A stretch of 32,000 nt of DNA, from the NCBI GenBank assembly GCA_050294405.1, contig JBNKOC010000012.1:103031-135030 (forward strand). The letters run 5' to 3'. The translations under genes were made by a program, and so were the position numbers. Under the pieces are notes generated by a model. That model was not told the DNA's origin. It worked only from the letters and a program-made list of their open reading frames with translations, and ran no database searches. Below, one piece after another: positions 627 to 20,024 of this stretch (position 1 is its first letter; every line of letters begins with the position of its first letter). The stretch comes from Fibrobacteria bacterium (GTDB taxonomy: Bacteria; Fibrobacterota; Fibrobacteria; UBA11236; JADFYW01).

Positions 627-974
627 TTATTCCTGCAGTCCGATATAAACAAAGCCTTTTTCAACTCGCACATTATAGATTTGAATTTTATAGTTTTCAC
701 CGCTTAAGCACTCCCCATTGGTTAGAGAAAATGTTTTTTTATGATGGGGACAGGCAACTTTTGGAATACCATCTTTTGTGCCGGTTAAGCCTCTAGCTAA
801 TACATTATCTCTTTTGTGAGGACATAAATTTTGACAAGCATACCAGTGCTTGTAATTAGAAAAATTAAATATGGCGATTTGTTTGCCCTTTAATTTTGCA
901 CAGGCTCCTCCATTCATTGGGAAATCTGATACGGCAGAAACCTTATGCCAAGTAGTGCTTTGCTGAGCAATCAT
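627..974 (-). CDS. nirD: Nitrite reductase (NADH) small subunit, Rieske [2Fe-2S] type
   Basis: 115 aa with Rieske-like CPHK...CPHH motifs. Overlaps the 3' end of nirB by 4 nt. Confidence 0.9.
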   Translation of the reverse strand: MIAQQSTTWHKVSAVSDFPMNGGACAKLKGKQIAIFNFSNYKHWYACQNLCPHKRDNVLARGLTGTKDGIPKVACPHHKKTFSLTNGECLSGENYKIQIYNVRVEKGFVYIGLQE

Positions 975-3493
975 GCTTTAACCTCTTCTAATTCATTAAC
1001 GATCCATTGGTTAGGGCGCTTTTGTCCCCGTTCATAAATCCATTGTATGTTATCGTCACCTTCATTACTATTAATAAAATGCCGGAATTTTTTACGCTTT
1101 TCAGGGTTTTCAACAGTGGATTTCCATTCGCACTGGTAAGTGTCAATTAGATGCAGCATATCTTTTTCTAAAGTATCGGCGATTCCGAGCTTGTCTTCTA
1201 TAATAACCTCTTTTAAATAGTCTAATCCACCTTGGAGTTTATTAAACCAGGTTGCGGTGCGCGTCAATTTGTCTGCCGTTTTGATATAATACATAATAAA
1301 TCGATCTAAATAACGCACCACAGTTTCTTCTGGAATATCAGTTGCAAGTAAAACTCCATGTTGAGGTTTGGCTCCGCCATTTCCACATACATATAAATTC
1401 CACCCCTTGTCAGTGGCCACAACTCCAAAGTCCTTTGATTGAGCTTCTGCACATTCCCTTACGCATCCAGAACAGGCACTTTTTAGCTTATGCGGGGCTC
1501 TAATTCCTTTATAACGGTTTTCAAGGCGGATAGCAAATCCTGTGGAGTCTTGAACGCCGTAACGGCACCAAGTTGAACCGACACAGCTTTTAACGGTGCG
1601 CAAGGCTTTTCCATAAGCGTGACCACTTTCAAGCCCAACAGCTATCAATTCCTCCCATATTTTGGGAAGTTCATGTAATTGAGCTCCGAAAAGATCTATT
1701 CTTTGGCCACCAGTGATTTTACAATACAAGTTGTATTTTTTTGCAACACTGCCAATGGTAATGAGCTGCTCTGGAAGAATTTCTCCTCCGGGAACACGAG
1801 GAACCACTGAATAAGTCCCTCCCTTTTGTATGTTGGCTAAAAATCTATCATTGGTGTCTTGCAATGTGTCTTGTTCCAAAATCATTTCGTTCCACACGCT
1901 GGCGAATATAGAAGCAATGGCAGGTTTACATACCTCACAGCCCTCTCCACGTCCGTGTTTTAAAAGAAGTTCTGAAAAACTTTTAATTTCCCCGATTTTA
2001 ATCAAGTCGAATAGTTCTTGTCTGGAGTAAGGGAAATGCTCGCAAATGGAGTGTGAAACTGCTTTGCCCTCAGATTCTAGGACGGCATTTAAAATGTCCT
2101 GAACCATTGGTAGACAGCCTCCACAGCCAGTTCCAGCATTTGTACAGTTTTTGAGGGCGCCAATTTCAGTAACGCCGTCTCGAACAGCATTTACGATATC
2201 CCCTTTAGATATGTTGTTACAAGAGCAAATTTGCGCTGAGTCAGGCAAAAAGGCTATTGACATGGGGTTTTCACCTTCTCCGCCTCTTTTGCCAAGTAAT
2301 AGCTCTTCTGGATCTTTAGGAACTGCTGTTTTGTTTTTCATAACTTGTAGCAGTTGATTGTATAGGGAAGCATCCCCTACTAACATACCTCCCAGTAAAT
2401 AGTCTCCATATTTTGATAGGGTAAGTCTTTGGTATACTCCTTTGGGATCGTTTTGATATACCATTGTTTTGGAATCAGGAGTTTCTCCGAAAGCATCTCC
2501 AAAGTTTGCTACATCAACTCCCATTAGCTTTAGCTTTGTGGGAGTGTCGGCACCCTTAAACTCTTTCCTGTCGCCTAGAAGATTACTTGCTAAAACGTCA
2601 GCCATTTCATAGCCAGGAGCTACTAAACCATAAATTAAACCGTTATGCAGTGCCACCTCTCCGATAGCATAAATGTCGGGGTCGGAAGTCTGCAATTTGT
2701 TGTTAATTATGACCCCTCCTCTTGGATGCACATCAAGACCGCAATCTTTGGCGAGTTCGTCTCTGGGGCGAATCCCAGCGGAAACTATGATCATATCCAC
2801 ATCTAGCTCTTCGCCATTTTTAAACAACATTTTTTGTACTTTGCCGTTTCCTTGAATTTCTTGGGTTTGAGTATCTGTATGAACTTTAACTCCTAAGGAT
2901 TCGATACTATTTTTGAGTAACCTACCTCCCATATCATCAATTTGGCGGGGCATAAGTCTTGGCGCAAATTCAATTACATGAGTTTTGAGCCCAAGATCTA
3001 AGGCTGCTTTGGCTGCTTCTAAGCCTAAAAGCCCACCTCCAATAACCGCTGCCTTCTTACTGCTTTTTGAGTATTCAATTATCTGTTCCAAGTCTTCAAT
3101 AGTTCGGTATACAAAGACGCCTTTTTTGTCTACACCTGGGATGGGTGGAACAAAGGCAGATGACCCTGTTGCAAGAACAATTGCATGATAAGGAATTGAA
3201 ACCCCTTTTTCGCTTAATACTAATTTTTTCTCTCTATCTATTTTGGCGGCTTTGTCTCCTACATGCAGTTCAATCTTGTTTTTTTTGTACCAATCTAAAC
3301 TTCCTAACATAAGAGGTTCGGCAGAACGTTCTTCAAAAAATTTTGTCAATTGAACCCGGTCATAAGCTGGCCTAGGTTCTTCGCAAAAAGTAATGAGGTT
3401 ATACTTAATATGATAGGCCTTCTCCACCAGCTTTTCGCAAAGTTTGTGGCCAACCATTCCATTTCCAATAACAATTAAATTTTTCATTTCCAT
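971..3493 (-). CDS. nirB: Nitrite reductase (NADH) large subunit, siroheme/[4Fe-4S], FAD-dependent
   Basis: 840 aa. N-terminal GNGMVGHKLCE FAD-binding domain, BFD-like [2Fe-2S] Cys motifs (CSCNN...CGGC), and sulfite/nitrite reductase siroheme signatures (VKSCVGSTWCRYGVQDS, KSACSGCVRECAEAQ). Confidence 0.97.
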   Translation of the reverse strand: MEMKNLIVIGNGMVGHKLCEKLVEKAYHIKYNLITFCEEPRPAYDRVQLTKFFEERSAEPLMLGSLDWYKKNKIELHVGDKAAKIDREKKLVLSEKGVSIPYHAIVLATGSSAFVPPIPGVDKKGVFVYRTIEDLEQIIEYSKSSKKAAVIGGGLLGLEAAKAALDLGLKTHVIEFAPRLMPRQIDDMGGRLLKNSIESLGVKVHTDTQTQEIQGNGKVQKMLFKNGEELDVDMIIVSAGIRPRDELAKDCGLDVHPRGGVIINNKLQTSDPDIYAIGEVALHNGLIYGLVAPGYEMADVLASNLLGDRKEFKGADTPTKLKLMGVDVANFGDAFGETPDSKTMVYQNDPKGVYQRLTLSKYGDYLLGGMLVGDASLYNQLLQVMKNKTAVPKDPEELLLGKRGGEGENPMSIAFLPDSAQICSCNNISKGDIVNAVRDGVTEIGALKNCTNAGTGCGGCLPMVQDILNAVLESEGKAVSHSICEHFPYSRQELFDLIKIGEIKSFSELLLKHGRGEGCEVCKPAIASIFASVWNEMILEQDTLQDTNDRFLANIQKGGTYSVVPRVPGGEILPEQLITIGSVAKKYNLYCKITGGQRIDLFGAQLHELPKIWEELIAVGLESGHAYGKALRTVKSCVGSTWCRYGVQDSTGFAIRLENRYKGIRAPHKLKSACSGCVRECAEAQSKDFGVVATDKGWNLYVCGNGGAKPQHGVLLATDIPEETVVRYLDRFIMYYIKTADKLTRTATWFNKLQGGLDYLKEVIIEDKLGIADTLEKDMLHLIDTYQCEWKSTVENPEKRKKFRHFINSNEGDDNIQWIYERGQKRPNQWIVNELEEVKA

Positions 3494-3605
3494 AACTTAC
3501 TAATCGGTTTTGTGAGATAACTAATAACGTGAAAGCAAAACCTATACCATCTCCAAACCTTGTTTTTTGTTAAAAAATAAGGAAAATGGAGCGTTGCTGG
3601 AATAA

Positions 3606-3629
3606 ATTGTCATACAATTTTCTGACAAT
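3606..3629. promoter_or_regulatory. Inverted repeat ATTGTCA-N10-TGACAAT in the nirB/kinase divergent region; candidate operator
   Basis: 7-bp perfect arms (3606-3612 and 3623-3629) placed immediately upstream of a TTGACA-like -35 element. Confidence 0.4.
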
Positions 3630-3631
3630 AC

Positions 3632-3660
3632 TTGACATTGTATATTAACCCCTAAATATA
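3632..3660 (+). promoter_or_regulatory. Candidate sigma70-type promoter for the phosphatase/kinase gene
   Basis: TTGACA (3632-3637), 17-nt spacer, AATATA (3655-3660). This placement would make ATG 3714 the natural start codon. Confidence 0.4.
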
Positions 3661-3713
3661 TGAGTTTCACAGAGTCTCTTTTTTGGTACAAGTGTTGCTC
3701 TTTCATAATAAAT

Positions 3714-5441
3714 ATGATAGCCATCCAAGAACGCAATAATCACAAGCTAGAAATAGTTTTGGGTCAATCCAGTTTGACTGGTCTTAGGGAGCGTAATGAA
3801 GATTTTTATGCATGTATTAAGCCGCAAAAGGTATCGACTTTAAATTACAAGGGTATTGCAGCAGTAATTGCGGATGGTGTTGGAGATACGGGTTATGGAC
3901 AAGAGGCTAGCCGTTATGCGGTGAGCACTTTTTTCTCAGAATATTTCAGTACTCCCGATTCTTGGAGCATAGAGCGATCCGGGGAAGAGGTGATAAAATC
4001 CATTAACAGTTGGTTGTACTCCCAGTCAGAACGCAACATTGGGGATAGTGGCCTTATGACGGCTTTCTCTGCAGCTATTTTATGTGGAAGCACTCTGCAT
4101 ATTTTCCATGTGGGAGACACAAGAATTTATTTAAAAGCAAAAAATAAATTAAAAAGGCTCACCAAGGATCATAGGGCTCATCACGGCCAAAATCAAATAA
4201 TTCGGGCATTGGGGTTAGATAGTAATGTTTACATCGATTATACACAGGAGATATTGGAACCAGATTCTTCTGTTATTATGATGACGGATGGCGTGCATAA
4301 TTATTTATCTGATGATAAAATCACAGGTTTTTTAAATAAGTTTGCAGCTCCTCAAGTGGCTTCAGAAGCATTAACAATGGCATCTCTTCGTGAGGGAAGT
4401 ACTGATAACATAAGCTGTCAAATAATTAACATAAAACACCTTCCTCCGTCGACAAAAAATGAAATTTATCAACGTTCCCGTGACTTGAAATTCCCCCCTC
4501 CCTTGAAAGTGGGTGCTTTTGTGGATTCTTATGAAATTCAGGAAGAACTAGGTTATGGAGCTATGGGGATAGTGTATTCCGCTTACGATTCTAAGAATGA
4601 TAAAGTGGTGGCTTTAAAGTGTCCCCGACAAGAATTTGAACAGGATATTATTTTCAGGGAAAGGCTCCTAAGGGAGGAATGGATTGGCCAGCGAGTTCAC
4701 AATCCAAATTTGATGAAAGTGCTGAATCCGAGTCATGTGCGCATGGAATACCATTATTTGGTAATGGAGTATTGTAAGGGATTTTCTCTTCGGGAACAAT
4801 TGGATAGTGGTAAGCATTTTAGTCATAATGATGTTGTTGAAATTGCTAAACAAATATGCAGAGGGTTGACAGAACTTCATCACATGGAAATTGTCCATAG
4901 GGATATTAAACCTGATAGTATTATTTGGAGTCAAGACGGTATGGTTAAGATAATCGACTATGGCATAGCCAAAGTTGGTAGTTTAAAATCTTTAACTTCA
5001 AATGCCAACGCTCCATGGATGGGAAGTCCCAATTACATGGCTCCTGAGATGTTCAAAAACAGTAGGGGGAATTCTGTCACGGATATATTCAGCCTTGGTG
5101 TCACCATGTATGAACTGTTAACAAGCTCCATGCCATATGGGGAGATAGACGCTGGAAAAGGTTATAAGAATACTGAGTTTGTTTCTTTACAAGAACTAAA
5201 CCCGGAAGTACCTAGCTGGCTTTCTACGGTGGTAGTTAAATGTTTGCACTTAGATCCTGACTCACGGTATCAAGCTGCTTCAGAAGTTCTATATGATTTG
5301 GAACATCCAGAAAAGGTTTTGCCTGATATGCGTTTTATTCCTTTATTGGAACGAAACCCTGTACTTGTTTGGAAAGTGATTTCGGCGACATTGCTTGGGA
5401 TTGTAGTTGTTTTGTCAGTGCTTTTGATTCGAGGGCGTTAA
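3714..5441 (+). CDS. Bifunctional PP2C-type phosphatase / Ser-Thr protein kinase with C-terminal TM helix, nitrite-assimilation associated
   Basis: PP2C motifs (RERNEDFY, IADGVGD, GDTRIYL, MMTDGVHN, GSTDNIS) are followed by a kinase domain (LGYGAMGIVYSA, VALKCP, VHRDIKPDS, IIDYGIAK, GSPNYMAPEM) and a C-terminal TM helix. The track starts at ATG 3660, but ATG 3714 fits better with the promoter and domain start. Confidence 0.88.
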   Translation: MIAIQERNNHKLEIVLGQSSLTGLRERNEDFYACIKPQKVSTLNYKGIAAVIADGVGDTGYGQEASRYAVSTFFSEYFSTPDSWSIERSGEEVIKSINSWLYSQSERNIGDSGLMTAFSAAILCGSTLHIFHVGDTRIYLKAKNKLKRLTKDHRAHHGQNQIIRALGLDSNVYIDYTQEILEPDSSVIMMTDGVHNYLSDDKITGFLNKFAAPQVASEALTMASLREGSTDNISCQIINIKHLPPSTKNEIYQRSRDLKFPPPLKVGAFVDSYEIQEELGYGAMGIVYSAYDSKNDKVVALKCPRQEFEQDIIFRERLLREEWIGQRVHNPNLMKVLNPSHVRMEYHYLVMEYCKGFSLREQLDSGKHFSHNDVVEIAKQICRGLTELHHMEIVHRDIKPDSIIWSQDGMVKIIDYGIAKVGSLKSLTSNANAPWMGSPNYMAPEMFKNSRGNSVTDIFSLGVTMYELLTSSMPYGEIDAGKGYKNTEFVSLQELNPEVPSWLSTVVVKCLHLDPDSRYQAASEVLYDLEHPEKVLPDMRFIPLLERNPVLVWKVISATLLGIVVVLSVLLIRGR

Positions 5442-9712: not shown

Positions 9713-10384
9713 ATGGACAAAATAAGTTCTGGTATGCTGCCCAGAGAAAAAATAATGCGTTTTGGGGTGGAAAAGTTAGAGGTATGGGAGTTGTTTGCTG
9801 TAGTTTTAGGGGTTGGTTACCCAGGAAAAGGTATTCTGGAACTTTCCAAAGATATCATTGAGGGTATTTCTGCCAACTCTAGTTATCCTAATCTTGAAGA
9901 ATTGGTTCAAATAAAGGGAATTGGTGAGGCTAAGGCTTGCAAAATATTAGCTGTTTTGGAGCTTTCCAAAAGGTTTATACCATTTGCAGAAAGAGCTAGT
10001 CTTAATTGCCCAGAGGATTTTATTCCGCTACTAGCACCCTTAAAATTTGCCAACCAGGAAGAGTTTTGGGTTTTTACGCTGGATTCAACAAATAAGCTTA
10101 TACAATCCCATGCAGTTACAAAAGGTTTGGTGAACCAAAGCCCCATTCATCCCCGAGAGGTTTTTGCTCCTGCTATAGTAGATAGAGCTGTAAACCTAGT
10201 TTTATGCCATAACCATCCTTCTGGAAGCCTCAAACCCTCCAGGGCAGATTTGGATGTGACTCGGGAATTGGTGAGTTTGGGTTCTCAATTAAAAATACCC
10301 ATCCTAGATCATATTATCGTATCCAGCAAAGGTATATGTTCTTTATCCAGGGAAATGCCGGATTTATTTTTGTATGGCCCTTAG
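9713..10384 (+). CDS. radC: RadC family protein (MPN+/JAB domain)
   Basis: HhH region (VQIKGIGEAKACKILA) and metal-binding CHNHPSGSLKPSRADLDVT. Confidence 0.92.
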   Translation: MDKISSGMLPREKIMRFGVEKLEVWELFAVVLGVGYPGKGILELSKDIIEGISANSSYPNLEELVQIKGIGEAKACKILAVLELSKRFIPFAERASLNCPEDFIPLLAPLKFANQEEFWVFTLDSTNKLIQSHAVTKGLVNQSPIHPREVFAPAIVDRAVNLVLCHNHPSGSLKPSRADLDVTRELVSLGSQLKIPILDHIIVSSKGICSLSREMPDLFLYGP

Positions 10385-10410
10385 GGGAAAAGAAGACCAT
10401 AATTAGGTAC

Positions 10411-11919
10411 ATGCGGGTAATCCATAAATTTTGGAAAAGAATAGGGCTGCTTTTGTGCTCAGCCTATTTGGTTTCAAGTTGCGTAAAGATTGAAACAAAA
10501 GAAATAAAATACCCTGATGGAGCGATAAAAGAAAAATATAGCTATTACCTGGCTGAAGGCGGTTTGGAAATCTGGGATGGAAAATACAGCCGTTGGTATC
10601 CATCGGGAAAACTCGCCGAAGAATCAAATTGGAATGAAGGTATTCTCCACGGGGTTCAAACTCAGTGGTATGAAAATGGCAATAAAAAAATGGAAGGAAA
10701 CTGGATTTTTGGAGAGGAAGAAGGTGTTTTTAAGAAATGGTATGTAAATGGTCAGTTGGCTGAAGAAATGGCTTTTGAAACCGGCCGCCCCAAAGGACAA
10801 AAAACAGTGTGGCATCCTAATGGAAAGAAAAAATCAGAATTGATGATTGTTAACGGATTAGAAGATGGGATAGAAAATATATGGGATGATAATGGAGATG
10901 TTTATTCCCAAAGGTTTTGGATAAGTGGAAAGCTTGATAGCGTTAAAACATACATTCCCGAGTCAGAGTTGAAACAAATGTCAATCGAGTTTGAGCCTGG
11001 AAAAAAGGCGGAGGAATTTAGCTATTTTTTAGATCCTGATGGAAACCAAATTCGACATGGAGATTTAAAGCAATGGTATGACAACGGGCAGTTGGAACGA
11101 AATATTTCTTTTGATTTCGGAAAAAAAAATGGAATGGAAATTTGGTATTTCGAAAATGGTTTAAAAAAATCAGAAATTCCCTGGAAGGTTGGGAAAAAAG
11201 ATGGCGTGGAAAAACATTGGTATCCAAATGGTGAATTTCAAAAAAGTGAAGAAAACTATGATACAGGGATATTAAATGGAGTTGTAAAAAACTGGTACCC
11301 AAATGGTAAATTAAAAAGTGAATTTTATTACGTTGATGGCAAACTCAGCGATACAGCAATGCTGTGGTTTGAATCGGGTACATTAAAGTCCAAAGCAGTT
11401 TACAGTGAAGGTAAGCTCAATGGCCAGGTGATCAGTTGCTACCCTATAGGACAAAAGAAATCTGTAGCTAGTTTTCAGGAAGGTGTAAAACATGGGAAAT
11501 ACCAGGAGTTTTATACTCATGGTCAGATAAAGTTGGAAGTGGAATACAATCGGGGTATAAAAATTGCGGAAAGTGTTAAGAAGTGGACTAAAGGTGGAGA
11601 TAGGGTGGATTTGAGCAAAATGTATACAGCTGTTGAAAAAGCCCAGTTGGAGCAAAAAATCAAACAATCCCATTCTAATTGTCAAAAAGAAATTGAGAAC
11701 GTTGCTGAACTTAAGGCAAAGTTAAATAGCGGTAGCCTGTATAAAGAACTGCAAAAACTTGAAATCAGCTACAACAGATCAGAACAAAAAAAAGAGGAAG
11801 AGTGCGAGTCCTACGGGGACAAAGTTGAAGAATACTTAAATTATTTTTCAAAAGAAGAATTGGATGAATTTTTACGTCTACAAAACTTAAGCCCTCTTAA
11901 TAGCCCCGGTTTCAACTGA
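10411..11919 (+). CDS. Putative lipoprotein with many MORN/YwqK-antitoxin-like repeats and a C-terminal coiled-coil region
   Basis: ATG 10411 gives MRVIHKFWKRIGLLLCSAYLVSSC (lipobox). About 12 repeats of the W-Y-x-N-G-K/Q-L type follow, then a charged helical tail. The track start at 10336 overlaps radC and is probably too long. Confidence 0.85.
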   Translation: MRVIHKFWKRIGLLLCSAYLVSSCVKIETKEIKYPDGAIKEKYSYYLAEGGLEIWDGKYSRWYPSGKLAEESNWNEGILHGVQTQWYENGNKKMEGNWIFGEEEGVFKKWYVNGQLAEEMAFETGRPKGQKTVWHPNGKKKSELMIVNGLEDGIENIWDDNGDVYSQRFWISGKLDSVKTYIPESELKQMSIEFEPGKKAEEFSYFLDPDGNQIRHGDLKQWYDNGQLERNISFDFGKKNGMEIWYFENGLKKSEIPWKVGKKDGVEKHWYPNGEFQKSEENYDTGILNGVVKNWYPNGKLKSEFYYVDGKLSDTAMLWFESGTLKSKAVYSEGKLNGQVISCYPIGQKKSVASFQEGVKHGKYQEFYTHGQIKLEVEYNRGIKIAESVKKWTKGGDRVDLSKMYTAVEKAQLEQKIKQSHSNCQKEIENVAELKAKLNSGSLYKELQKLEISYNRSEQKKEEECESYGDKVEEYLNYFSKEELDEFLRLQNLSPLNSPGFN

Positions 11920-11979: not shown

Positions 11980-14157
11980 ATGGAAATTCCAGTAGCTGTA
12001 AAAGCAGCAAAATATTTAATGCTGCTGTCTGCTTTATCTCTGCAATTTTCCTGTAAGCAAAATGGAAGTGTAAAAATGGAAAATAAATTACGAAATGAAA
12101 AAAGCCCCTATCTCCTGCAGCATGCTAAAAATCCGGTCCATTGGTATCCTTGGGGTGAGGAAGCGTTTAACAGAGCTAAAAAAGAAAATAAACTAATACT
12201 ATTGTCCATTGGTTATTCTACTTGCCACTGGTGCCATGTCATGGAAAAAGAATCTTTTGAAAAAGAGGATGTGGCAGCTATCCTTAACAAATATTATGTA
12301 AGTATTAAGGTAGATAGAGAGGAACGCCCGGATGTAGATAATTTGTATATGGGATTAGCACAAGCTTTAGGGGTTGGGGGAGGCTGGCCCCTTAATTTGT
12401 TCTTAACTCCCGACCAGGTTCCTTTTACCGGGGGCACCTATTTTCCTCCGGAAGATGCTTATGGTAAGCGAAGTTTTAAATATGTGCTTCAAACTGTGGC
12501 AAAAATGTGGGAAAGCGAACCTCAGAAAATTTTAGATACAGAAAAAGGGGTGCTAAAATATATCAATCAAAAAAATGAAGTAACCCCCACAGCTGTAAAT
12601 ATTGAAGCGTTGCATCAAAAGGCGATTTTAGAAAAAGCTTCTATGTATGAGCCGGCGTATGGGGGCTTTTCTTCAGCTCCAAAGTTCCCTATGGGTCACG
12701 CACTTTCCTATTTGATATTGCTCGAAAAAAGAAATCCAGACAAAGTGCTTCTCAATAGAATAACCCACACTTTGGATAACATGGCTTCGGCCGGGCTTTA
12801 CGATCAAATTGGAGGGGGGTTTCATCGTTATTCCACAGACAGGGAATGGCTGGTGCCCCATTTTGAAAAAATGTTATACGACCAGGCGCTTTTGATTACT
12901 GCATATGCCAATGCCTACAGCAATACCTTAAATAGCCGCTATGCAGAAATTGTAGCGGAAACAATTGAGTATCTGCGTAGAGATATGTTGGATGAAAAGG
13001 GAGGTTTTTATTCGGCTGAAGATGCCGATAGCGAGGGAGAAGAAGGGACTTTTTATTTATGGGAAATATCGGAACTCAAGGAATTAGTTCCAGAGAATAT
13101 TGGAATGTTAATGGATTGGTTTGATATAAAAGAGCATGGGAATTTCGAGGGAAAAAATATTTTAACCCGTAAACATACTATTAGATGGTTGGCGGAAAAG
13201 TATGGAAAAGATGAAGACGGGTTGAAAGCTAAAATAAAGGAAATGAATTCCAGGCTTTTGGCCGCAAGAAGCCAAAGAATCCGGCCTCATTTGGACGATA
13301 AAATTTTAACAGACTGGAACGGTTTAGTTATATCGGCGTTAAGCAAGGCAGCCCAGGCTTTGCCCGATTCGCTGGGCGATATATATAAAAAAGAAAATAG
13401 CCTTAATATGGCAAAAAATGCGGCCGAATTTGTTTTAAAAGAATTAAGAGATAAGGATAACCGGCTTTTAAAAAGTTACAGGCAAGGGCCTTCTAACATC
13501 GCAGGGTTTATTGAGGATTACGCCTTTTTTGCCAATGGACTATTGGACTTGTATGAAAGCAGTTTCGAAGTAAAATACCTTGAGGAGGCTGTGGCTACAG
13601 CCCGCCAGATGATTGAAAATTTTTGGGACTCCAAGGACGGTGGCTTTTATTTTATTCCTAAAGATGGAAGCATGCTCTTAAAAAATGCCAAGGAACTCAA
13701 TGACGGAGCTATTCCCAGCGGAAATAGTGTGGCGGCGCAGGTATGTGCTCGTCTATATCGCATTACCGCAAATGAGGAATACAAAAACATATTGGAAAAA
13801 ATGATTTCCTTTTTTGGCCCTCAAATTAATACCTATCCTTCCAGCTATCCTGTTTTTTTATCCGCATTGGATATGTATTATAATCCCGGTCCTGAAATTA
13901 TTTTATCCGGAAATAAAGAAAACGAATCCTTTAAAAAAATTTGGAGCCTGGTAAAAAAATACCCATCCATAAACCAAATATTAATTCATGTTCCTGAACA
14001 CAGTGAATCAGCCATATTTGAAATAGCTCCTTTTACCAAACAACAACGAGTCGTTGAAGGAGATGTAACCTTTTATTATTGCCAAAATAGAACATGCCAA
14101 AGACCTTTGAATTCTCCCGTAGATGTGGAAGAATTTTTAAAATCAGTTGCCGGATAA
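11980..14157 (+). CDS. DUF255 / thioredoxin-domain protein, YyaL (SSP411)-like
   Basis: Motifs [24 protein letters not shown] and [17 protein letters not shown], and an (a/a)6-like C-terminal region. The track start is TTG 11962; ATG 11980 gives a signal/lipobox-like N-terminus. Confidence 0.93.
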
Positions 14158-14850
14158 TATTTGCAATATTGTGCTTTTGTGATTATCGAGATAATAAGAA
14201 AAATCGTGAAGGCCATCAGGGAAAATATACAGGCTGGTGTTTGGATTTTGTTTTTTCCATTCTTTAAAAACAGGTTCAATTTTTTCAATTGGAAAGAGTC
14301 TGTCGTTTCCTCCCTGAAAAAAGTGCCAATGCCCTTTTTGAAACCCATCTTGACTGTAATTTTTTTGATTTAAAATAATTTGAGGGGCGCTGGAAAATAA
14401 AAGCCTCTTGGTTATATTAAAGGGGCTGTTAATACTAAAGTGAATCACGGCTAAAGAGCCATCCGAAACACCAAATAAAATAATCGGCAATTTTTCCAAT
14501 TGCTGTTTGGCGATAAATTCCCTTAAAAAACTATTTATGTTTGTCATTAGTTGCGGGTGAAGCCAATGTAAGTTTCTATTGGCTGAGGGGCTGAATACTA
14601 TATAATCATTTCTGTTTATAAGAGGGTATATGCCTGTTAAGGCTTGTTTCCCTTTGTCTGATATGGGACTATTCATGCCGCCATGAAACCAGATGATAAT
14701 ACCTTTGGCCGAGGTCATGTTTGAAGGAAAGCTGGCGCCGTAGAAAACATTTTCAGAGCCGAATTGAAAAATGGAGTCCCGGAAGGAAAAAGAATTCTCC
14801 AGAAAGAAAAACAAATGGCAAAATAATAAAAGATGAATCTTTGTATTCAT
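14143..14850 (-). CDS. Exported alpha/beta hydrolase (serine esterase-like)
   Basis: [22 protein letters not shown] signal peptide, IIWFHGG, nucleophile elbow FGVSDGS, later GGNDRLFP and DGLHDF (Asp/His). The track starts at TTG 14865; ATG 14850 is more likely. Confidence 0.75.
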
Positions 14851-14886
14851 ACTCATTAATTGCAATATAGCACAATGAATAGTTGC

Positions 14887-15561
14887 TTAGTGGATTCGAA
14901 TTACAATTCTTCTGTTGGCGGCTTGGTTTTCTGGAATGGGCTTGCCGTTGGAGTCCCTGTTGGGAGCAACAGGCTTGGTATCTGCATATCCTGCAGCCTT
15001 AAGCCTGTCCCCATTCACGCCAGTTTCTATCATATACTTAACAATGTTTGTTGCCCTGGAAACGCTAAGCTCCCAGTTTGAGGGAAAACGAATGGTGTTA
15101 ATGGGAACATCATCTGTATGTCCTTCCACATCCACTACAAAGGGGTAATAATCAACCTGCTTAATGGCTTGTGAAACCTTATCAATCAGGTTTTGTGCTG
15201 TTGGGCTTATGTCGGCACTCCCGCCAGCGTAAAAAGCCGAACTTGCAAATTTTAACATTATGTTTTTTTGGTCCTGCTTTATATTAACCTGCTGGGCTGC
15301 TTTCTCATCAGCCAATAACGAGTCCAGAGCCCGCTTAATATCAGCCAAGGGAGTTTTTATCTTCTCGTCTTTGATTTCCGAAATGATTCCAGATTTCATT
15401 TGTTCCCATAAGCTCATATCCACTTTTGAAATGGATATTAACATTAAAAAAAACGCCATAAGAAGGGTTATCATATCCCCGTAGGTATTCATCCAGTCAT
15501 CTAAATTCACCTCTTCAGGTTCGTTTAGTCTGTATTTGTTTTTATGGGATTTTAAAGCCAT
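14887..15561 (-). CDS. motB: MotB-family stator protein with OmpA-like peptidoglycan-binding domain
   Basis: DDWMNTYGDMITLLMAFFLMLISIS TM helix with the proton-channel Asp (D29). OmpA domain EGHTDDVPI...NWELSVSRATNIVKYM...RLKAAGYADTKPV...NRRIVIRI. Confidence 0.92.
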   Translation of the reverse strand: MALKSHKNKYRLNEPEEVNLDDWMNTYGDMITLLMAFFLMLISISKVDMSLWEQMKSGIISEIKDEKIKTPLADIKRALDSLLADEKAAQQVNIKQDQKNIMLKFASSAFYAGGSADISPTAQNLIDKVSQAIKQVDYYPFVVDVEGHTDDVPINTIRFPSNWELSVSRATNIVKYMIETGVNGDRLKAAGYADTKPVAPNRDSNGKPIPENQAANRRIVIRIH

Positions 15562-15572
15562 GAATCGCTGCC

Positions 15573-16367
15573 TTATTTTTTGGGCTCAGCATCCATTTGA
15601 AATTTATTTTTTCTGTCCAAATAGGCGTTTAATTTATCCTGAATATAAAATGGACTTTTCTTTTCCAGTATTAACATAAACCCTTCAAGGATTAGATATT
15701 CCCGGAACCTTTGGATTCCTAAAATTTGCTTTACTTTGGTGGAGCATGGTTGGAATATAAATCTGGCGAATAAAACCCCATATAATGTGGTCATGAGGGC
15801 AATAGACAAACCAGGTCCCATTTGAGAGGGGTCATCCATTTTGCTTAACATTACAATTAATCCAATTAAGGTGCCTACCATGCCAAAAGCCGGAGCGGCA
15901 GAGGCCATTGTGTTTAATATGTTGGATTCGGATAGATGTCTGAAGTAGTGCTCTTCAATGGCGGTTTCGGTAAACTCAGCCACCTCATCTTTGGAATAGC
16001 CGGTACTGATTAAGGAACTAACATACTTCACGAAATCATCTTTTGTCTCATTTCCGATGTTTTCAAAAGCGTTGATTCCGTCTTGGGATACACGCCTGGA
16101 CCAGCTGATAACCATTCCCACATCCTGCATAAGAGATTTTGGAGTTATTTTCTGGCGTACGAAAACTTTAAATATAGATAAAAGAGCTACAAAAATATAG
16201 CGCCAGCGATACCCGATAAAAGCAGATGTTACGGTACCTCCAACAACAATGGAAGCGCTGGGACCGCTGATAAATATGCTCCAGTCATTAGTTGCGCTTA
16301 AAACACCCCAGGAAACAATTCCCACACCAAAAATAACACCGAATACGGTGGAAAGGGAAAGAAACAT
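15573..16367 (-). CDS. motA: MotA/PomA-family flagellar-type stator protein
   Basis: IVVGGTVTSAFIGYRW, SWSRRVSQDGINAFE cytoplasmic loop, MASAAPAFGMVGTLIGLIVMLSKMDDPSQMGPGLSIALMTTLYGVLFA, FQPCSTKVK. Confidence 0.95.
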   Translation of the reverse strand: MFLSLSTVFGVIFGVGIVSWGVLSATNDWSIFISGPSASIVVGGTVTSAFIGYRWRYIFVALLSIFKVFVRQKITPKSLMQDVGMVISWSRRVSQDGINAFENIGNETKDDFVKYVSSLISTGYSKDEVAEFTETAIEEHYFRHLSESNILNTMASAAPAFGMVGTLIGLIVMLSKMDDPSQMGPGLSIALMTTLYGVLFARFIFQPCSTKVKQILGIQRFREYLILEGFMLILEKKSPFYIQDKLNAYLDRKNKFQMDAEPKK

Positions 16368-17044
16368 TAATTTTGCTCCAAACTTTTGTTGGCTTTTTTA
16401 AGCTTATTCAACATTTGAATAACAGCTGGCATATCAGGGTTTAATCTAAGAGATTGCAACCAGGCTTCTTTGGCGGCGGGCATATCGTCCATCATGTATA
16501 ATATGCTTCCCATAAGGGCGTATCCATCTGACGTTTCTTGTTTTTGTAAACTGAATTTCACCATGTCCAAAGCTTCCGGAAATCTTTTCTGATAGAAAAA
16601 CTCCTGCGCCTTTCTAATTTCCGCCAAGACCTGCTGCATATCGCCTTTTGTAAGGTCATTGCCTTTGGCTATATCCATAACATCATCCCAATTTTCTTTT
16701 TTGTCTTTTTCTTCTTCCTCTTTAGCGGCAGAGTCTACGGAGGTTTTTTTGCTGGATTGCTGGACTTGAGGGGCGACAGGAGAAGGCGGGGGAACCGGGC
16801 TGCCTGACATTACCAAATTTACATCCTGGCTGTTTATGTCCACAACCATAGTTACATTTGAAGACTTGTTAGTGTATGAAATTTTCATTTCATTGCTATT
16901 TTTTGGCGCTGGAGAAGAAACCTGGTTATTCTCTGCACGGGTATCCGCGCTTTTTTTATCTGCCTTTGAGGAGGCGCAGCCCATAGCTCCCAATAGGGCT
17001 ATGTAAATCAGGCTAGAAGGTATAATTAAGGATGTCCACTTCAT
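16367..17044 (-). CDS. TPR-repeat lipoprotein of the rotor-stator cluster
   Basis: Signal/lipobox LLGAMGC, a Pro-rich linker, then TPR-like helices (EFFYQKRFPEALDMVKFSLQKQETSDGYALMGSILYMMDDMPAAKEAWLQSLRLNPDMP). Its TAA and the motA ATG overlap by 1 nt. Confidence 0.8.
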   Translation of the reverse strand: MKWTSLIIPSSLIYIALLGAMGCASSKADKKSADTRAENNQVSSPAPKNSNEMKISYTNKSSNVTMVVDINSQDVNLVMSGSPVPPPSPVAPQVQQSSKKTSVDSAAKEEEEKDKKENWDDVMDIAKGNDLTKGDMQQVLAEIRKAQEFFYQKRFPEALDMVKFSLQKQETSDGYALMGSILYMMDDMPAAKEAWLQSLRLNPDMPAVIQMLNKLKKANKSLEQN

Positions 17045-18092
17045 AAGCTAGTTTCTCAAAGGTGATTTTGTGCCCCACTGCATCTCCCAAAGAACCGGTG
17101 ATAAACCGATCTCCAGCTATGTAACTTACCCCAATGGATACTCCAAAATGTTTGGAGAGTTGAGCGTTATATCCATAGGTAAAAACCGGAATGCTGCCTG
17201 TAAATAAAAAAGGAACATAATAGTAGGCGCTAAAATAGGTCCCCAACCAATGGCCCCTGTCCCGGTTTCCTTTGGGAACTAACACGGCCCAAACTCCAAC
17301 TCCAATTTGCATGGTGTATATGCCGCTGTAGCCCAATTCAATACTGTCTTTTTTGGAGATTGCCATGCGGGATACACCTGCGTTGATGTTAAACCACAAC
17401 CTTCGGTTTTTGGTCAAGGCTTCAGTGACACTCCCTTCAATGGCGACTTGGTTAAACCCGGTTTCCTTGTCTATGCCGCTTTGTCCCTCAAACTTTTCCA
17501 TGGAAAAAATTCGAATAGGTACATGAGCGGACCATTTTAAGTCGAATATGCTAGGCTCCACCTTGTTGGGTCCTGCGATAAAATCTCCAGACCACAATAT
17601 TTCAGCAGTTCGGTGCTTCACTAATTTTAGATTTAACATTACATCGCCATCCTTGGACTTGCTGCAAGAACCTTCAATAAAAGCGTCAATTCTTAATTTA
17701 TCGCCAAGCTTCCAAAGCTCTTCGATAGTAGGAATGGTGTTAGACATGCTAAAGGAGGTATCGGTGCTGATAATATTCAGGGTTTTTAGTTCGGGGGGAG
17801 ATACTAGCGTACGGCGGCCTTCATCCCGCAATGTAGTTTCAATTCGGCCTTGAATGTATCTGGACTCCCCTTTTGTGAAACCTTTGGAATCCGTTCTGAT
17901 TTGGTAAATGGCGATTTTTTCCACCGAGGGAGGTATATCCCCTAATGTTTCCTTTAGCTCAGCAATAATTTTTTCAATTTGCTTGATTCCGGAGGATGTT
18001 TCATAAAAGGGATGGTTCTCCGGTAGGTTTTCCGTTACATTGTCCCCGAAAGAAAAGGCGAATAGAAACCCCAATAATGTTAGTATTCTCAT
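17013..18092 (-). CDS. Exported protein: FlgO/CsgG-like N-terminal domain plus possible outer-membrane beta-barrel C-terminal region
   Basis: MRILTLLGFLFAFSFG signal. IAIYQIRTDSKGFTKGESRYIQGRIETTLRD...LVSPPEL...LGDKLRIDAFIEGS...LKLVKHRTAEILWSGDF resembles FlgO/CsgG-type folds. The C-terminus has alternating aromatic/Gly strands and ends in Phe (NYTF). Confidence 0.55.
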   Translation of the reverse strand: MRILTLLGFLFAFSFGDNVTENLPENHPFYETSSGIKQIEKIIAELKETLGDIPPSVEKIAIYQIRTDSKGFTKGESRYIQGRIETTLRDEGRRTLVSPPELKTLNIISTDTSFSMSNTIPTIEELWKLGDKLRIDAFIEGSCSKSKDGDVMLNLKLVKHRTAEILWSGDFIAGPNKVEPSIFDLKWSAHVPIRIFSMEKFEGQSGIDKETGFNQVAIEGSVTEALTKNRRLWFNINAGVSRMAISKKDSIELGYSGIYTMQIGVGVWAVLVPKGNRDRGHWLGTYFSAYYYVPFLFTGSIPVFTYGYNAQLSKHFGVSIGVSYIAGDRFITGSLGDAVGHKITFEKLAYEVDILNYTF

Positions 18093-19909
18093 GCCTCCGG
18101 CCTCCCGCCATAGGCTTTGATATCCTGCCTGATTTTTTGCAAAAGGGTTTTTTGCGCGCTTTCAATTTCTTCAGCTTTTAAATCGGTTTTGGTTTCCAAA
18201 CCCGATTTTATCATAAGCTGCATCCGCTCAGGTAGTAAGGAAATTACTTTTAATTTTATGTCTTCTTCTACTCCGGCAAGGGCATTGGTAAGTACATCCT
18301 GGTTTACATTTCTAACAGAATTAGTGAGAAACTTGTCGGGAAGGCTGGTGATTTCAGGTAGGGTGATAAAATTGTTTTTGATTTTTTCCGCCAGGTTTAA
18401 ATCCACTTCTGCAATGGAATTCAGATATTCTCCCTGGACAGAAATGGGAAGGCTGTCTAAAACATCCAGTACGCTTTCAATGCCATCAGAAGCTACATAG
18501 CGCATGTTTATAACTTCAAGCGCGTTGGCAGACAATCTATCCGCTAGTTCCTTGTATACTTTAAGGGGGATGTTTTGAATTTTTCCCATTCCCGCAAGAA
18601 TTTTTGTGCGCTTGGATTTATCCAATTTTTGAAGTATGGAGCTTGCTTTGGACGGTTCCACCTGGGCTAAAGCCATGCCAATGATTCCTTCAGATTCCTC
18701 CTTTAACAGGTGGAGGATTTGTTGTTCGTTCATCTGGCGCAAAAACCCAAAGAGATCTGCATATTCGCTTTCGTTTATTATGGAGCTGGTTTGGTTTTGG
18801 TAATCTTCTTTGAATTGCTTATACACAGCTAAAACTTCTTCCCCCGCCAAGGGTTCCAATTGTTTTAACCTATTTTCGATATTTTTAGTTTCTTCTTTTC
18901 CCAGTTCTGTGGAAACAACTTTTAATATTCTTTCATCAACTGCCTTAATTAATTTTGTTGTTTCCTGATGTCCTTCTTCACCTTTTTGCTGAATCCATTT
19001 CTTTAATACCTGAGAGCTGGAGGCTGTGTCCCCAATAAAGGCGCTTAACACATAAGAACGCATTTCCCGGAGTTCGTTATTCCCACTGTCCTCTTCTTTA
19101 TTAGCCTCTGTAGATTTTTCTTTTTCGGGAGCTGTTTTAATTTCCTGGAGTTCGTTGATGATGTTAGTATAGGAATCCTGGACCTTGCTTCGCTGCCGGT
19201 TTTTAGAAAACGCTCGGGAAACAATAACGGCAATTAACAAAACAAAAATGCAAATGATGAGTAGGGGTATTAAAGAAGCCAGGTTGTCCACCAAAGGTTT
19301 GAAGGGGTTTAATTTTTCCTCTTTTTCCAACAGCTCGGAATCCGCCTTACTGCTGGGTAAGGCTTTTGGGTCCATGTTTTCAGCCAATTGATATCCCGAA
19401 TTAGGCTTTTTCTGGACTGGGAAAATTCCGGAGCGAATATCCAGCCTGTCTCCCCGATATTCATTTAAATTTGCCGACATGCTAATAAGCTTTTTAATAA
19501 AGGAGTAGTCTTTATCTTCATAGCTTGTATCCACCATGATTTCCACTTCCACATGGTTAATGGAAAAGTCACTTTGTTTTTTCCCAGCCCTGGCTTTTGC
19601 CGCCCCTTCCTTCATGTCATTGGGCAACACAGGCAGCCCCGGCAGGGTGTATATATCATCCAAATCCCCTTCCAGATCAATTTCTTCAGACTCGTTCAGA
19701 AACACATTGGCATCTACTAAAAAAGTCCGTTCATCATAATATTTGCTGAGAACATCTTTTATTAGAACTTCGTAGTAGTGGGAGGCTTTGCGAGATTGGG
19801 CTTCGTATTTGCTTCTATCCTCATTTTTAACTTTAAATTCCTGGCCATTAGCCGGGGCAAAAAGGATTATTGCAAAAAAGGCCCACTGGATGATGCCTGC
19901 AAATTTCAT
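18089..19909 (-). CDS. Natural fusion: signal peptide, FliF C-terminal (RBM3-like) periplasmic domain, TM, cytoplasmic FliG (middle and C-terminal domains)
   Basis: FliF-like NHVEVEIMVDTSYEDKDYSFIKKLISMSANLNEYRGDRLDIRSGIFP. TM helix LASLIPLLIICIFVLLIAVIVSRAF. FliG-like IGMALAQVEPSKASSILQKLDKSKRTKILAGMGKIQNIPLKVYKELADRL...GIESVLDVLDSL...DLNLAEKIKNNFITLPEI...ALAGVEEDIKLKVISLLPERMQLMIKSGLE...EEIESAQKTLLQKIR. The track start is TTG 19933; ATG 19909 gives a clean signal peptide. Confidence 0.85.
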   Translation of the reverse strand: MKFAGIIQWAFFAIILFAPANGQEFKVKNEDRSKYEAQSRKASHYYEVLIKDVLSKYYDERTFLVDANVFLNESEEIDLEGDLDDIYTLPGLPVLPNDMKEGAAKARAGKKQSDFSINHVEVEIMVDTSYEDKDYSFIKKLISMSANLNEYRGDRLDIRSGIFPVQKKPNSGYQLAENMDPKALPSSKADSELLEKEEKLNPFKPLVDNLASLIPLLIICIFVLLIAVIVSRAFSKNRQRSKVQDSYTNIINELQEIKTAPEKEKSTEANKEEDSGNNELREMRSYVLSAFIGDTASSSQVLKKWIQQKGEEGHQETTKLIKAVDERILKVVSTELGKEETKNIENRLKQLEPLAGEEVLAVYKQFKEDYQNQTSSIINESEYADLFGFLRQMNEQQILHLLKEESEGIIGMALAQVEPSKASSILQKLDKSKRTKILAGMGKIQNIPLKVYKELADRLSANALEVINMRYVASDGIESVLDVLDSLPISVQGEYLNSIAEVDLNLAEKIKNNFITLPEITSLPDKFLTNSVRNVNQDVLTNALAGVEEDIKLKVISLLPERMQLMIKSGLETKTDLKAEEIESAQKTLLQKIRQDIKAYGGRPEA

Positions 19910-20024
19910 TGATACACTCAATTTTTGAAGCAAAATATTCTCTAACGATTTTTTTCATGGTATTACAATCCCGGTTGGGTTTGCAAAGGTTTTTTAGGAA
20001 GGGCCTTTAAAAATTCAAAAAAAA

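Follow-up and report, generated by a model that had tools for sequence, protein, structure and literature searches.

Flagellar rotor proteins are normally confined to flagella. The nearest precedent for the protein described here is the natural FliF-FliG fusion of the Chlamydiaceae, in which a shortened FliF is followed by a FliG-like sequence in a host thought not to build flagella (Bergeron 2016, PMC4768692). That protein has about 330 amino acids (aa), both transmembrane (TM) helices, the second ring-building motif (RBM2) along with a second RBM-like domain, and an FliG_M-like region only; no dedicated MotAB has been reported with it (PMC4768692). A Salmonella fusion, engineered or spontaneous (PDB 8z4d and 8z4g), similarly joins the end of FliF to the start of FliG, but there FliF is full-length, the protein totals 945 aa and it works within a complete flagellum. 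What rotor proteins do in species without filaments is a question that a 2025 survey put forward explicitly (PMC12199754). The gene considered here lies at 18089..19909, on the minus strand, of a 32,000-nucleotide stretch of DNA from a Fibrobacteria bacterium (GenBank assembly GCA_050294405.1, contig JBNKOC010000012.1, positions 103,031 to 135,030 of the forward strand), which as a whole will be called the window. Judging from its sequence, its product is very probably an end-to-end fusion of the C-terminal part of FliF (RBM3 without its collar, the second TM helix TM2, and the tail) to a complete FliG. Unlike the chlamydial protein it has RBM3 only, all three FliG domains with the torque helix, and stator genes of its own.

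The fusion gene is the first of a tight operon, hereafter the cassette, whose order is fusion gene, a gene for a 359-aa protein (p359), a gene for a tetratricopeptide repeat (TPR) protein, motA and motB. In comparison with the flagellar FliF and FliG and their MotA5B2 stator, the cassette has kept RBM3, TM2, the tail, the N, M and C domains of FliG, the equivalent of the FliG arginine R281, a flagellar-type MotA with an E98 equivalent, and a MotB with its plug, Asp and OmpA-like domain. It differs from them in having a single polypeptide with a signal peptide in the place of TM1, in lacking RBM1/RBM2, the collar and the EHPQ motif, in the loss in its clade of the equivalents of D288/D289 and R90, and in having a TPR lipoprotein and p359 as partners with no flagellar neighbours. 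We think it probable that the cassette forms a ring driven by the operon's own MotAB, that is, a rotor-stator module outside any flagellum. No description of such a cassette appeared in the literature turned up by full-text searching.

The FliF half and the junction

The fusion gene is an intact frame of 606 aa, with an ATG start at 19909 and a stop codon at 18089-18091; the open reading frame (ORF) list shows the frame open upstream as far as a TTG at 19933, and the NCBI gene call, on contig JBNKNQ010000001.1 of GCA_050293925.1, is the identical 606-aa protein (P0001). All coordinates given for the cassette are window positions on the minus strand. For the detection of distant homology, a profile was made from 132 diverse family members taken from the matches in a library of representatives (alignment A3), and it was employed both with hhalign and against the PDB. 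The FliF side of the hhalign comparison was a single E. coli FliF sequence (552 residues). A protein search with E. coli FliF was unfit for a FliF profile because all 120 matches listed were at least 82% identical.

The diverse profile aligned fusion residues 117-310 with FliF 374-551 (probability 95.8%, E 7.7e-9, 157 columns). This FliF stretch comprises the strand-helix-RGD-strand that closes RBM3, TM2, the charged cytoplasmic linker and the C-terminal helix, the end of which (RQWINNDH) aligns with LKKWIQQKG of the fusion. Separate pieces of the profile also found their places: the second half of RBM3 alone matched E. coli FliF 374-434 (hhalign E 1.7e-4), and the tail alone matched FliF 526-551 (hhalign E 1.6e-4). 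Accordingly divided, the FliF half has an RBM3-like periplasmic ring-building domain at about residues 37-166 (19412..19801; placed by hhalign, PDB 9yh6 and Pfam YscJ_FliF_C) and, at about residues 276-310 (18980..19084; placed by hhalign), an equivalent of the FliF C-terminal tail with its FliG-binding helix region, which ends in VLKKWIQQKG and contains a Trp (W305) that is invariant in the alignment of relatives.

The FliF part was also recognised in two other ways. The Pfam model YscJ_FliF_C (PF08345) scores 17.8 bits (E 0.005) on the fusion protein itself, which is below its cut-off; of 16 relatives, 12 are matched in the same region (best E 1.5e-5). In the PDB, the diverse profile found Salmonella FliF (6scn, E 4.6e-10; 8z5s, E 6.9e-10), and a profile of the periplasmic part only (A7) found chain Oj of 9yh6, a 144-aa FliF present in 34 copies in that entry, over 132 residues at E 2.4e-5. 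Three other FliF sequences gave a like picture, the halves of this periplasmic profile landing on those of RBM3. A periplasmic profile built from the 16 close relatives (A2) had retrieved nothing from the PDB at E≤10 and E. coli FliF only at E 0.076; the FliF signal was missed there because the profile was too shallow, and it appeared with the diverse one. The 9yh6 FliF chain, which spans the whole periplasmic domain of the family, would be the best template for modelling a ring.

An earlier note on this DNA, made from the letters and translations without database searches, had proposed that a C-terminal part of FliF is joined to FliG in one polypeptide without RBM1 or RBM2, and had named FliF similarity in the periplasmic segment as a test. 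The similarity is there in the alignments and searches above, and with the FliG results below the proposal is supported. The model for RBM1/RBM2 (PF01514) gave no match at E≤1 in the fusion protein, nor at E≤0.1 in the 16 relatives, and only some 14 residues separate the signal peptide from the RBM3-like helix. The loss of the beta-collar goes beyond that account: about 105 residues of E. coli FliF (approximately 269-373) are without a counterpart in the family in the hhalign comparison. The collar is replaced by a loop of about 45 aa (19562..19693) whose only strongly conserved feature among the 132 members is a near-invariant LPGLP (residues 89-93), P90 and G91 being at least 90% conserved. 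As a tracker of p359 this motif was tried and rejected, since a regular expression failed to find it in two loci without p359 (L029 and L031) but also in one that has it (L036).

The N-terminus of the protein looks like a cleavable signal peptide (residues 1-22, MKFAGIIQWAFFAIILFAPANG, followed by QEF; 19844..19909, read from the sequence), with one Lys, a hydrophobic core of 15 residues and A-N-G before the Q, so that small residues stand at -3 and -1. Q23, the predicted +1 residue, is nearly invariant in relatives, and the homologues show cleavage sites of the AxA/Q type. The single TM helix, the equivalent of FliF TM2, occupies about residues 209-233 (19211..19285; hydropathy peak at 212-230, score 3.33, and hhalign); the earlier note was right in counting one helix, but had put it about ten residues off, at 219-240. 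Whereas FliF has two TM helices and a cytoplasmic N-terminus, the fusion protein has one helix and an N-terminal signal peptide, which had been taken to mean a new topology. The replacement of the N-terminal anchor by a signal peptide stands, but the novelty was overstated: the retained part is oriented as in FliF, with RBM3 outside, TM2 in the membrane and the tail inside, and the anchor alone has been swapped.

The homology to FliF reaches its penultimate residue (551 of 552), and the Pfam FliG_N match begins only a few residues further on, at fusion residue 314. The junction is thus such as would result from the loss of a fliF stop codon. The E. coli fliF and fliG genes share an 8-base overlap.

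The FliG half

The rest of the protein contains all three FliG domains, each above its Pfam gathering score: FliG_N with 30.8 bits (25 required; match at residues 314-404), FliG_M with 38.0 (25) and FliG_C with 65.3 (23.3). They correspond to an N-terminal domain at about residues 311-385 (18755..18979), a middle domain at about 386-470 (18500..18754; supported also by alignment to E. coli and T. maritima FliG) and a C-terminal domain at about 471-603 (18101..18499; supported also by PDB 1lkv). That the resemblance might be limited to generic helices of the MgtE_N kind had been raised beforehand; MgtE_N scores 19.1 bits, under its cut-off of 25.9, and the FliG assignment therefore holds. FliG of T. 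maritima and of A. aeolicus is found by the 16-relative profile at about E 1e-20, and hhalign against E. coli FliG gives E 2.6e-11. With the 132-member profile the PDB yields 1lkv at E 1.2e-49 and A. aeolicus FliG (3hjl) at E 5.7e-45 over residues 11-326 of the full-length protein, while the FliG_N structure 5tdy is matched by the family profile at E 3.6e-5. The Salmonella fusion is matched by the family profile in two stretches (E 6.9e-49). The protein is nonetheless below the level of a FliG equivalog, TIGR00207 scoring 82.7 bits against a cut-off of 226.7 and covering the M and C domains only. Its FliG is not a separate soluble protein bound to the FliF tail without a covalent link; it is covalently continuous with the FliF-tail homologue, the TM helix and the periplasmic domain.

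In canonical FliG, the EHPQ motif of the middle domain contacts FliM in flagella. In the fusion protein this motif is replaced, EESEG standing at the aligned position, and the columns of the family at this site read E (110 of 132 members), S/P/D, P/E/D and G/R. Two stand-alone proteins of FliG size, P0163 (310 aa) and P0137 (331 aa), match the family profile at E 1e-35 to 1e-42 and share its KDE..xI motif at the EHPQ place; relatives of the family without the fusion are one possibility, truncated gene calls the other.

The equivalent of the torque helix lies at residues 556-575 (ISLLPERMQLMIKSGLETKT; 18185..18244, by alignment to E. coli FliG). Within it, R562 corresponds to R281 of E. coli FliG; it is invariant in close relatives and basic (R or K) in 128 of the 132 members. 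The other charged residues have fared differently: D288 and D289 have become S and G in the fusion protein (the D289 column is acidic in 66 of 132 members), K264 is an A, and R297 is a K.

The operon and its stator genes

The genes of the cassette overlap or nearly abut, and the ATG of p359 (17013..18092) overlaps the stop codon of the fusion gene. The TPR gene (16367..17044), motA (15573..16367) and motB (14887..15561) follow. MotA had been thought to be adjacent to the fusion gene; it is in fact two genes further downstream in the same tightly packed operon. A scan for promoters and terminators gave results no better than those from shuffled sequence.

The operon MotA has the Pfam channel domain MotA_ExbB (79.8 bits) with a large cytoplasmic loop and, to judge by its best matches, is of the flagellar (PomA/MotA) type and not of the Exb/Tol/Zor type. 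Among the NCBIfam models it scores 143.8 bits with PomA (cut-off 341) and 140.4 with MotP, both below the equivalog cut-offs. With ZorA it scores only 13.7 bits; in the PDB it finds C. sporogenes MotA at E 1.2e-33 and PomA at E 1.8e-27. MotB consists of a plug, a TM helix with a conserved Asp and an OmpA-like peptidoglycan-binding domain (Pfam MotB_plug 55.7 and OmpA 62.8 bits; NCBIfam MotD 158.1 bits against a cut-off of 283). The Asp, part of a Y[GAS]D motif, is kept in all 17 homologues.

In E. coli, MotA R90 contacts FliG D288/D289 and MotA E98 contacts FliG R281 (PMC12505986). The E98 equivalent is Glu or Asp in all 17 of the Fibrobacterota MotA sequences. The R90 equivalent is S, Q or T in this clade, with a conserved K/R pair 2-3 residues upstream, and its FliG counterparts (the D288 and D289 positions) are S/G and G there. 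The second charge pair is met with outside the clade, where L030 has RK in MotA and EE in FliG, and where L034, L035 and L036 likewise have a base and an acid. Where MotA has lost or kept its side of this pair, the fusion protein tends to have done the same, a suggestive pattern that would fit a cognate MotA-FliG interface.

The two remaining proteins would define new families with a function tied to the cassette. The conserved partner p359 begins with a signal peptide and a well-conserved N-terminal domain, and its C-terminal half, rich in Gly and aromatic residues, ends in NYTF. It has no match in Pfam, NCBIfam or the PDB, and its 58 detectable homologues are all annotated as hypothetical and lack any Pfam domain. 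From its composition and its C-terminal YxF alone p359 is probably an outer-membrane barrel; a hydrophobic-moment scan was uninformative. The TPR protein (225 aa) is a probable lipoprotein, since in it, as in its homologues, a Cys follows the signal sequence, and it consists of a low-complexity linker, acidic and rich in Pro and Ser, and a C-terminal TPR module (Pfam TPR_1, E 1.2e-5).

Distribution and gene neighbourhoods

An exhaustive search of the representative library (clusters at 50% identity) found 178 representatives at E≤1e-30, showing that the family is much larger than a word-based search had implied. Most of the best 150 are 560-730 aa long and match from end to end, and the layout of the protein is kept in about 130 of them. 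A genome scan yielded 22 loci, of which 20 carry the labels Fibrobacterota, Fibrobacteria or Fibrobacterales (metagenome-assembled genomes, MAGs, or single-amplified genomes), one Balneolales and one Bifidobacteriales. The Bifidobacteriales label (L007) is probably a binning error; the Balneolales one belongs to a 4.4-kb contig (L027) that carries a 632-aa member of the same layout at 1895-3793. Among relatives that are 30-49% identical, 26 positions are invariant in the periplasmic part alone. More distant members (17-25% identical) bear other labels: Elusimicrobia ADurb.Bin231, Deltaproteobacteria RIFOXYA12, and MAGs of Gammaproteobacteria, of Pseudomonadota and, in one case, of Fibrobacteraceae (the MAG with HSQ40764.1). 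Further host assemblies are GCA_042567505.1, GCA_002069855.1, GCA_029884425.1 and GCA_043820105.1.

In all 17 loci with enough downstream DNA, every one of them from Fibrobacterota, the five genes stand in the same order. Clustering of the ORFs of all loci showed the five operon families to be the only widely shared ones, bar a MORN-like protein found in synteny in 12 loci. This protein (about 530-580 aa, with faint MORN_2 matches) is encoded at 10336-11919 of the window (plus strand) and at 6056-7792 of L003 (minus strand), and in L003 and L004 it is directly upstream of the cassette and divergent from it. It could be a sixth partner, or its position could simply reflect the synteny of related Fibrobacteria.

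The neighbourhoods were viewed for about 10 kb on either side of each fusion gene, and 12 loci were annotated with Pfam. Among the distant ones, the five genes and their order are unchanged in L032, L034 and L036; the order is p362, TPR, fusion, MotA, MotB in L030 and MotA, MotB, p372, TPR, fusion in L033, and L035 lacks p359. The set has been kept across at least four named phylum-level groups, with its order reshuffled and its content retained. MotA and MotB accompany the fusion gene in 10 of the 12 annotated loci, p359 is present in 9 (its distant-locus homologues being found by profile search at E 1e-9 to 1e-34), and homologues of the TPR protein are beside the fusion gene in at least 11 (E 5e-14 to 8e-31). 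No other flagellar gene, nor any type III export, FliM or FliN gene, was found in the window or in the 12 annotated neighbourhoods.

In L029 and L031 the fusion gene is accompanied by the TPR gene and, 3' of it, by a gene for a barrel-like protein of about 215 aa (10944-11597 and 3174-3812, respectively). This protein has a signal peptide and an aromatic C-terminal residue and resembles a small outer-membrane barrel; homology to p359 was not detectable (E 0.1-2).

The flanking genes vary from locus to locus. In two unrelated hosts the cassette is flanked by genes for polysaccharide synthesis and export (Wza/SLBB, Wzi, Wzc-like, Wzy_C and glycosyltransferases; L002 127-6486 and L033 12614-18819). 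In L035 (594-9964) a series of unannotated ORFs comes before the fusion gene, and then come DUF4402, fn3_5 and a 1003-aa SdrD_B-like protein; together they may specify a surface structure. As indications of the output of the cassette, these polysaccharide-export and adhesin-like neighbours are leads only. Directly after motB, three loci have a block of 3-4 small unannotated ORFs and a TPR protein of about 500 aa (L002 13678-17223, L005 6155-9425 and L008 11724-14488); the block is not at the corresponding place in the window.

Proposed function

Our preference for a motor outside the flagellum is based on which pieces were retained and which are missing. The S-ring domain, the membrane anchor, the FliF-FliG joint and the torque ring are present and a dedicated stator is in the operon, whereas the missing pieces are those that serve the gate, the rod and the switch; RBM1/2 and the beta-collar of FliF hold the export gate and the rod. 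On this basis, once the signal peptide has been cleaved, many copies of the fusion protein would assemble through their RBM3-like domains into an S-ring-like ring on the periplasmic face of the inner membrane, each copy carrying its own FliG on the cytoplasmic face. MotA5B2 units, anchored to the peptidoglycan by the OmpA-like domain of MotB, would conduct ions past the MotB Asp and push the torque helix of FliG_C, so that the ring turns; the contact would be made by the conserved Arg (R281 equivalent) facing the conserved acid of MotA (E98 equivalent). The ring would have neither a socket for the export gate or rod nor a FliM-binding motif, and hence would neither build nor drive an axial filament, and chemotactic switching would be improbable. 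Its output would most likely be taken off on the periplasmic side, where the LPGLP loop stands in the place of the collar; this loop, p359 and the TPR lipoprotein are candidates for the coupling. The TPR lipoprotein and p359 could either scaffold the stators, as the T-ring and H-ring proteins do in Vibrio, or relay motion to the outer membrane or cell surface.

Other known systems share some of these features. The Vibrio T- and H-ring proteins (MotX, MotY, FlgT and FlgO/FlgP) are periplasmic or outer-membrane accessories around the basal body that hold the stators, and MotX is a repeat protein of the Sel1/TPR kind. No significant similarity of the cassette partners to these proteins was found with Pfam in 15 p359 members: FlgT_M (E 0.054) and FlgO (E 0.069) were each hit by 1 of the 15, far below the cut-offs. 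A motor of the MotAB family driven by protons or sodium ions, with envelope-spanning partners and no flagellum, is also found in GldLM of the type IX secretion system (T9SS), AglRQS-Glt, TolQR-Pal, ExbBD-TonB and ZorAB. These, however, act through an elongated B subunit or a TonB/TolA-like partner and not through a FliG ring, and the A subunit of the cassette is of the flagellar type.

Several points weigh against a rotor-stator module outside the flagellum. Ring formation, the fold of p359 and every contact are deduced from sequence. The first half of RBM3 (residues 37-72) taken alone matches FliF weakly (hhalign E 0.05-0.09), its sole placement being at E. coli FliF 233-268, which is the start of RBM3 and in the correct order. 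With the loss of the D288/D289 acids and of the MotA R90 base in the fusion clade, one of the two canonical charge pairs is left, and the co-variation of charges is broken in L032, L033, L005 and L008, among sequences that are phylogenetically non-independent. Two of the 12 annotated loci (L029 and L031) have no motAB beside the fusion gene. Finally, within a view of about 10 kb on either side, a full set of flagellar genes may sit elsewhere in the hosts, flagella being ancestral and common in Fibrobacterota and reported lost in the Fibrobacteraceae (PMC4704652). The one family member labelled Fibrobacteraceae lends weak support to a flagellum-free host.

The same evidence bears on what else the fusion might be. 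It could be an energy transducer instead of a free rotor: a FliG ring or oligomer would dock MotAB, and work would pass through the TM helix and the periplasmic domain to the TPR lipoprotein and p359 for some task in the envelope, for example the upkeep of the outer membrane, the export of polysaccharide or gliding on surfaces, much as in Tol-Pal, TonB, Agl-Glt or GldLM. Other 5:2 motors do act as energy transducers of this kind, the partners span the envelope, with one protein in the inner membrane, one long-linker lipoprotein and one that is probably in the outer membrane, and the polysaccharide-export genes of L002 and L033 and the adhesin-like genes of L035 would suit such a task. These flanking genes are inconsistent across loci, however, and the parts retained are exactly those that make up the rotating S-ring and torque ring of flagella, next to a MotA of the flagellar type with its large cytoplasmic torque interface and not of the Exb/Tol type, all of which leads us to consider a transducer unlikely. 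Alternatively, the fusion might be the true rotor of an unusual flagellum, replacing or supplementing FliF and FliG, with the operon MotAB as its stator; this was in essence the covalent link between MS-ring and C-ring that the earlier note had envisaged. All the parts are indeed flagellar homologues, and in-frame FliF-FliG fusions in Salmonella are motile. Their structures have been solved (PDB 8z4d/8z4g), and flagella are ancestral in Fibrobacterota (PMC4704652). Such a rotor would, though, have to do without RBM1/RBM2, the beta-collar and the EHPQ motif for FliM binding. Its gene is never beside fliE/H/I/M/N or another flagellar gene in the 12 annotated loci, the genes that constantly accompany it are those for the TPR lipoprotein and the unannotated p359, and one member carries the label of Fibrobacteraceae, a family reported to be without flagella (PMC4704652). 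The gene context argues instead for a separate, non-flagellar module, and we regard a flagellar rotor as quite improbable.

Two further explanations carry little weight. A decaying and now functionless remnant of a lost flagellum would not be without parallel, as one or more of FliG, FliM and FliN occur without a filament in 11% of non-motile species (PMC12199754). The intact frame, the 26 invariant periplasmic positions among relatives only 30-49% identical, the content of the cassette kept over at least four phylum-level groups and the layout kept in about 130 clusters make this very improbable. A defence against phages of the Zorya kind, which also employs a MotAB-like motor, is suggested by the match of MotB to ZorB models (E 2e-19), but this is a generic MotB similarity, MotA scores 13.7 bits with ZorA and 143.8 with PomA, there are no ZorC/D-like genes, and the other three cassette proteins have no PADLOC match. 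PADLOC rules out a known defence system, and we give a Zorya-like role next to no credence.

Returning to the rotor-stator module that we prefer, it is a tentative extension of it that the cassette may be a free-standing rotary machine, present in several phyla, with its own MotAB and no export apparatus, rod, hook or filament, coupled through the TPR lipoprotein and a new outer-membrane protein to some process of the envelope or cell surface. A further and less likely step would be its descent from a pre-flagellar rotor-stator module instead of a reduced flagellum. The cassette is a concrete, widespread and well-conserved candidate for the use of rotor proteins outside flagella, a torque-generating core of S-ring domain, FliG and MotAB that is set apart from secretion and from any axial structure. 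Should it rotate, it would be the flagellar motor in its simplest natural form and a tractable system for rotor-stator coupling, with a fixed 1:1 ratio of FliF to FliG and no switch complex; it would also be a new data point on how the motor module might exist or arise independently of the type III export apparatus.

Other features of the window

The GC content is even across the window, at about 0.40, and outside the operon the window holds housekeeping genes, for instance those for nitrite reductase, acetolactate synthase, a MATE pump, CorA and methionine aminopeptidase. A 240-aa ORF 3' of motB (14143-14865, minus strand) was considered as a member of the system and discarded, being absent from all the other loci; it has weak matches to alpha/beta-hydrolases (Hydrolase_4, E 6.5e-4). 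The nitrite reductase genes (627-3493, minus strand) form an assimilatory NirB/NirD-like pair, an 840-aa protein with Pyr_redox_2, BFD-like and NIR_SIR domains being followed by a 115-aa Rieske_2 protein. At 3660-5441 (plus strand) a single 593-aa protein combines a PP2C phosphatase domain with a Ser/Thr kinase domain.

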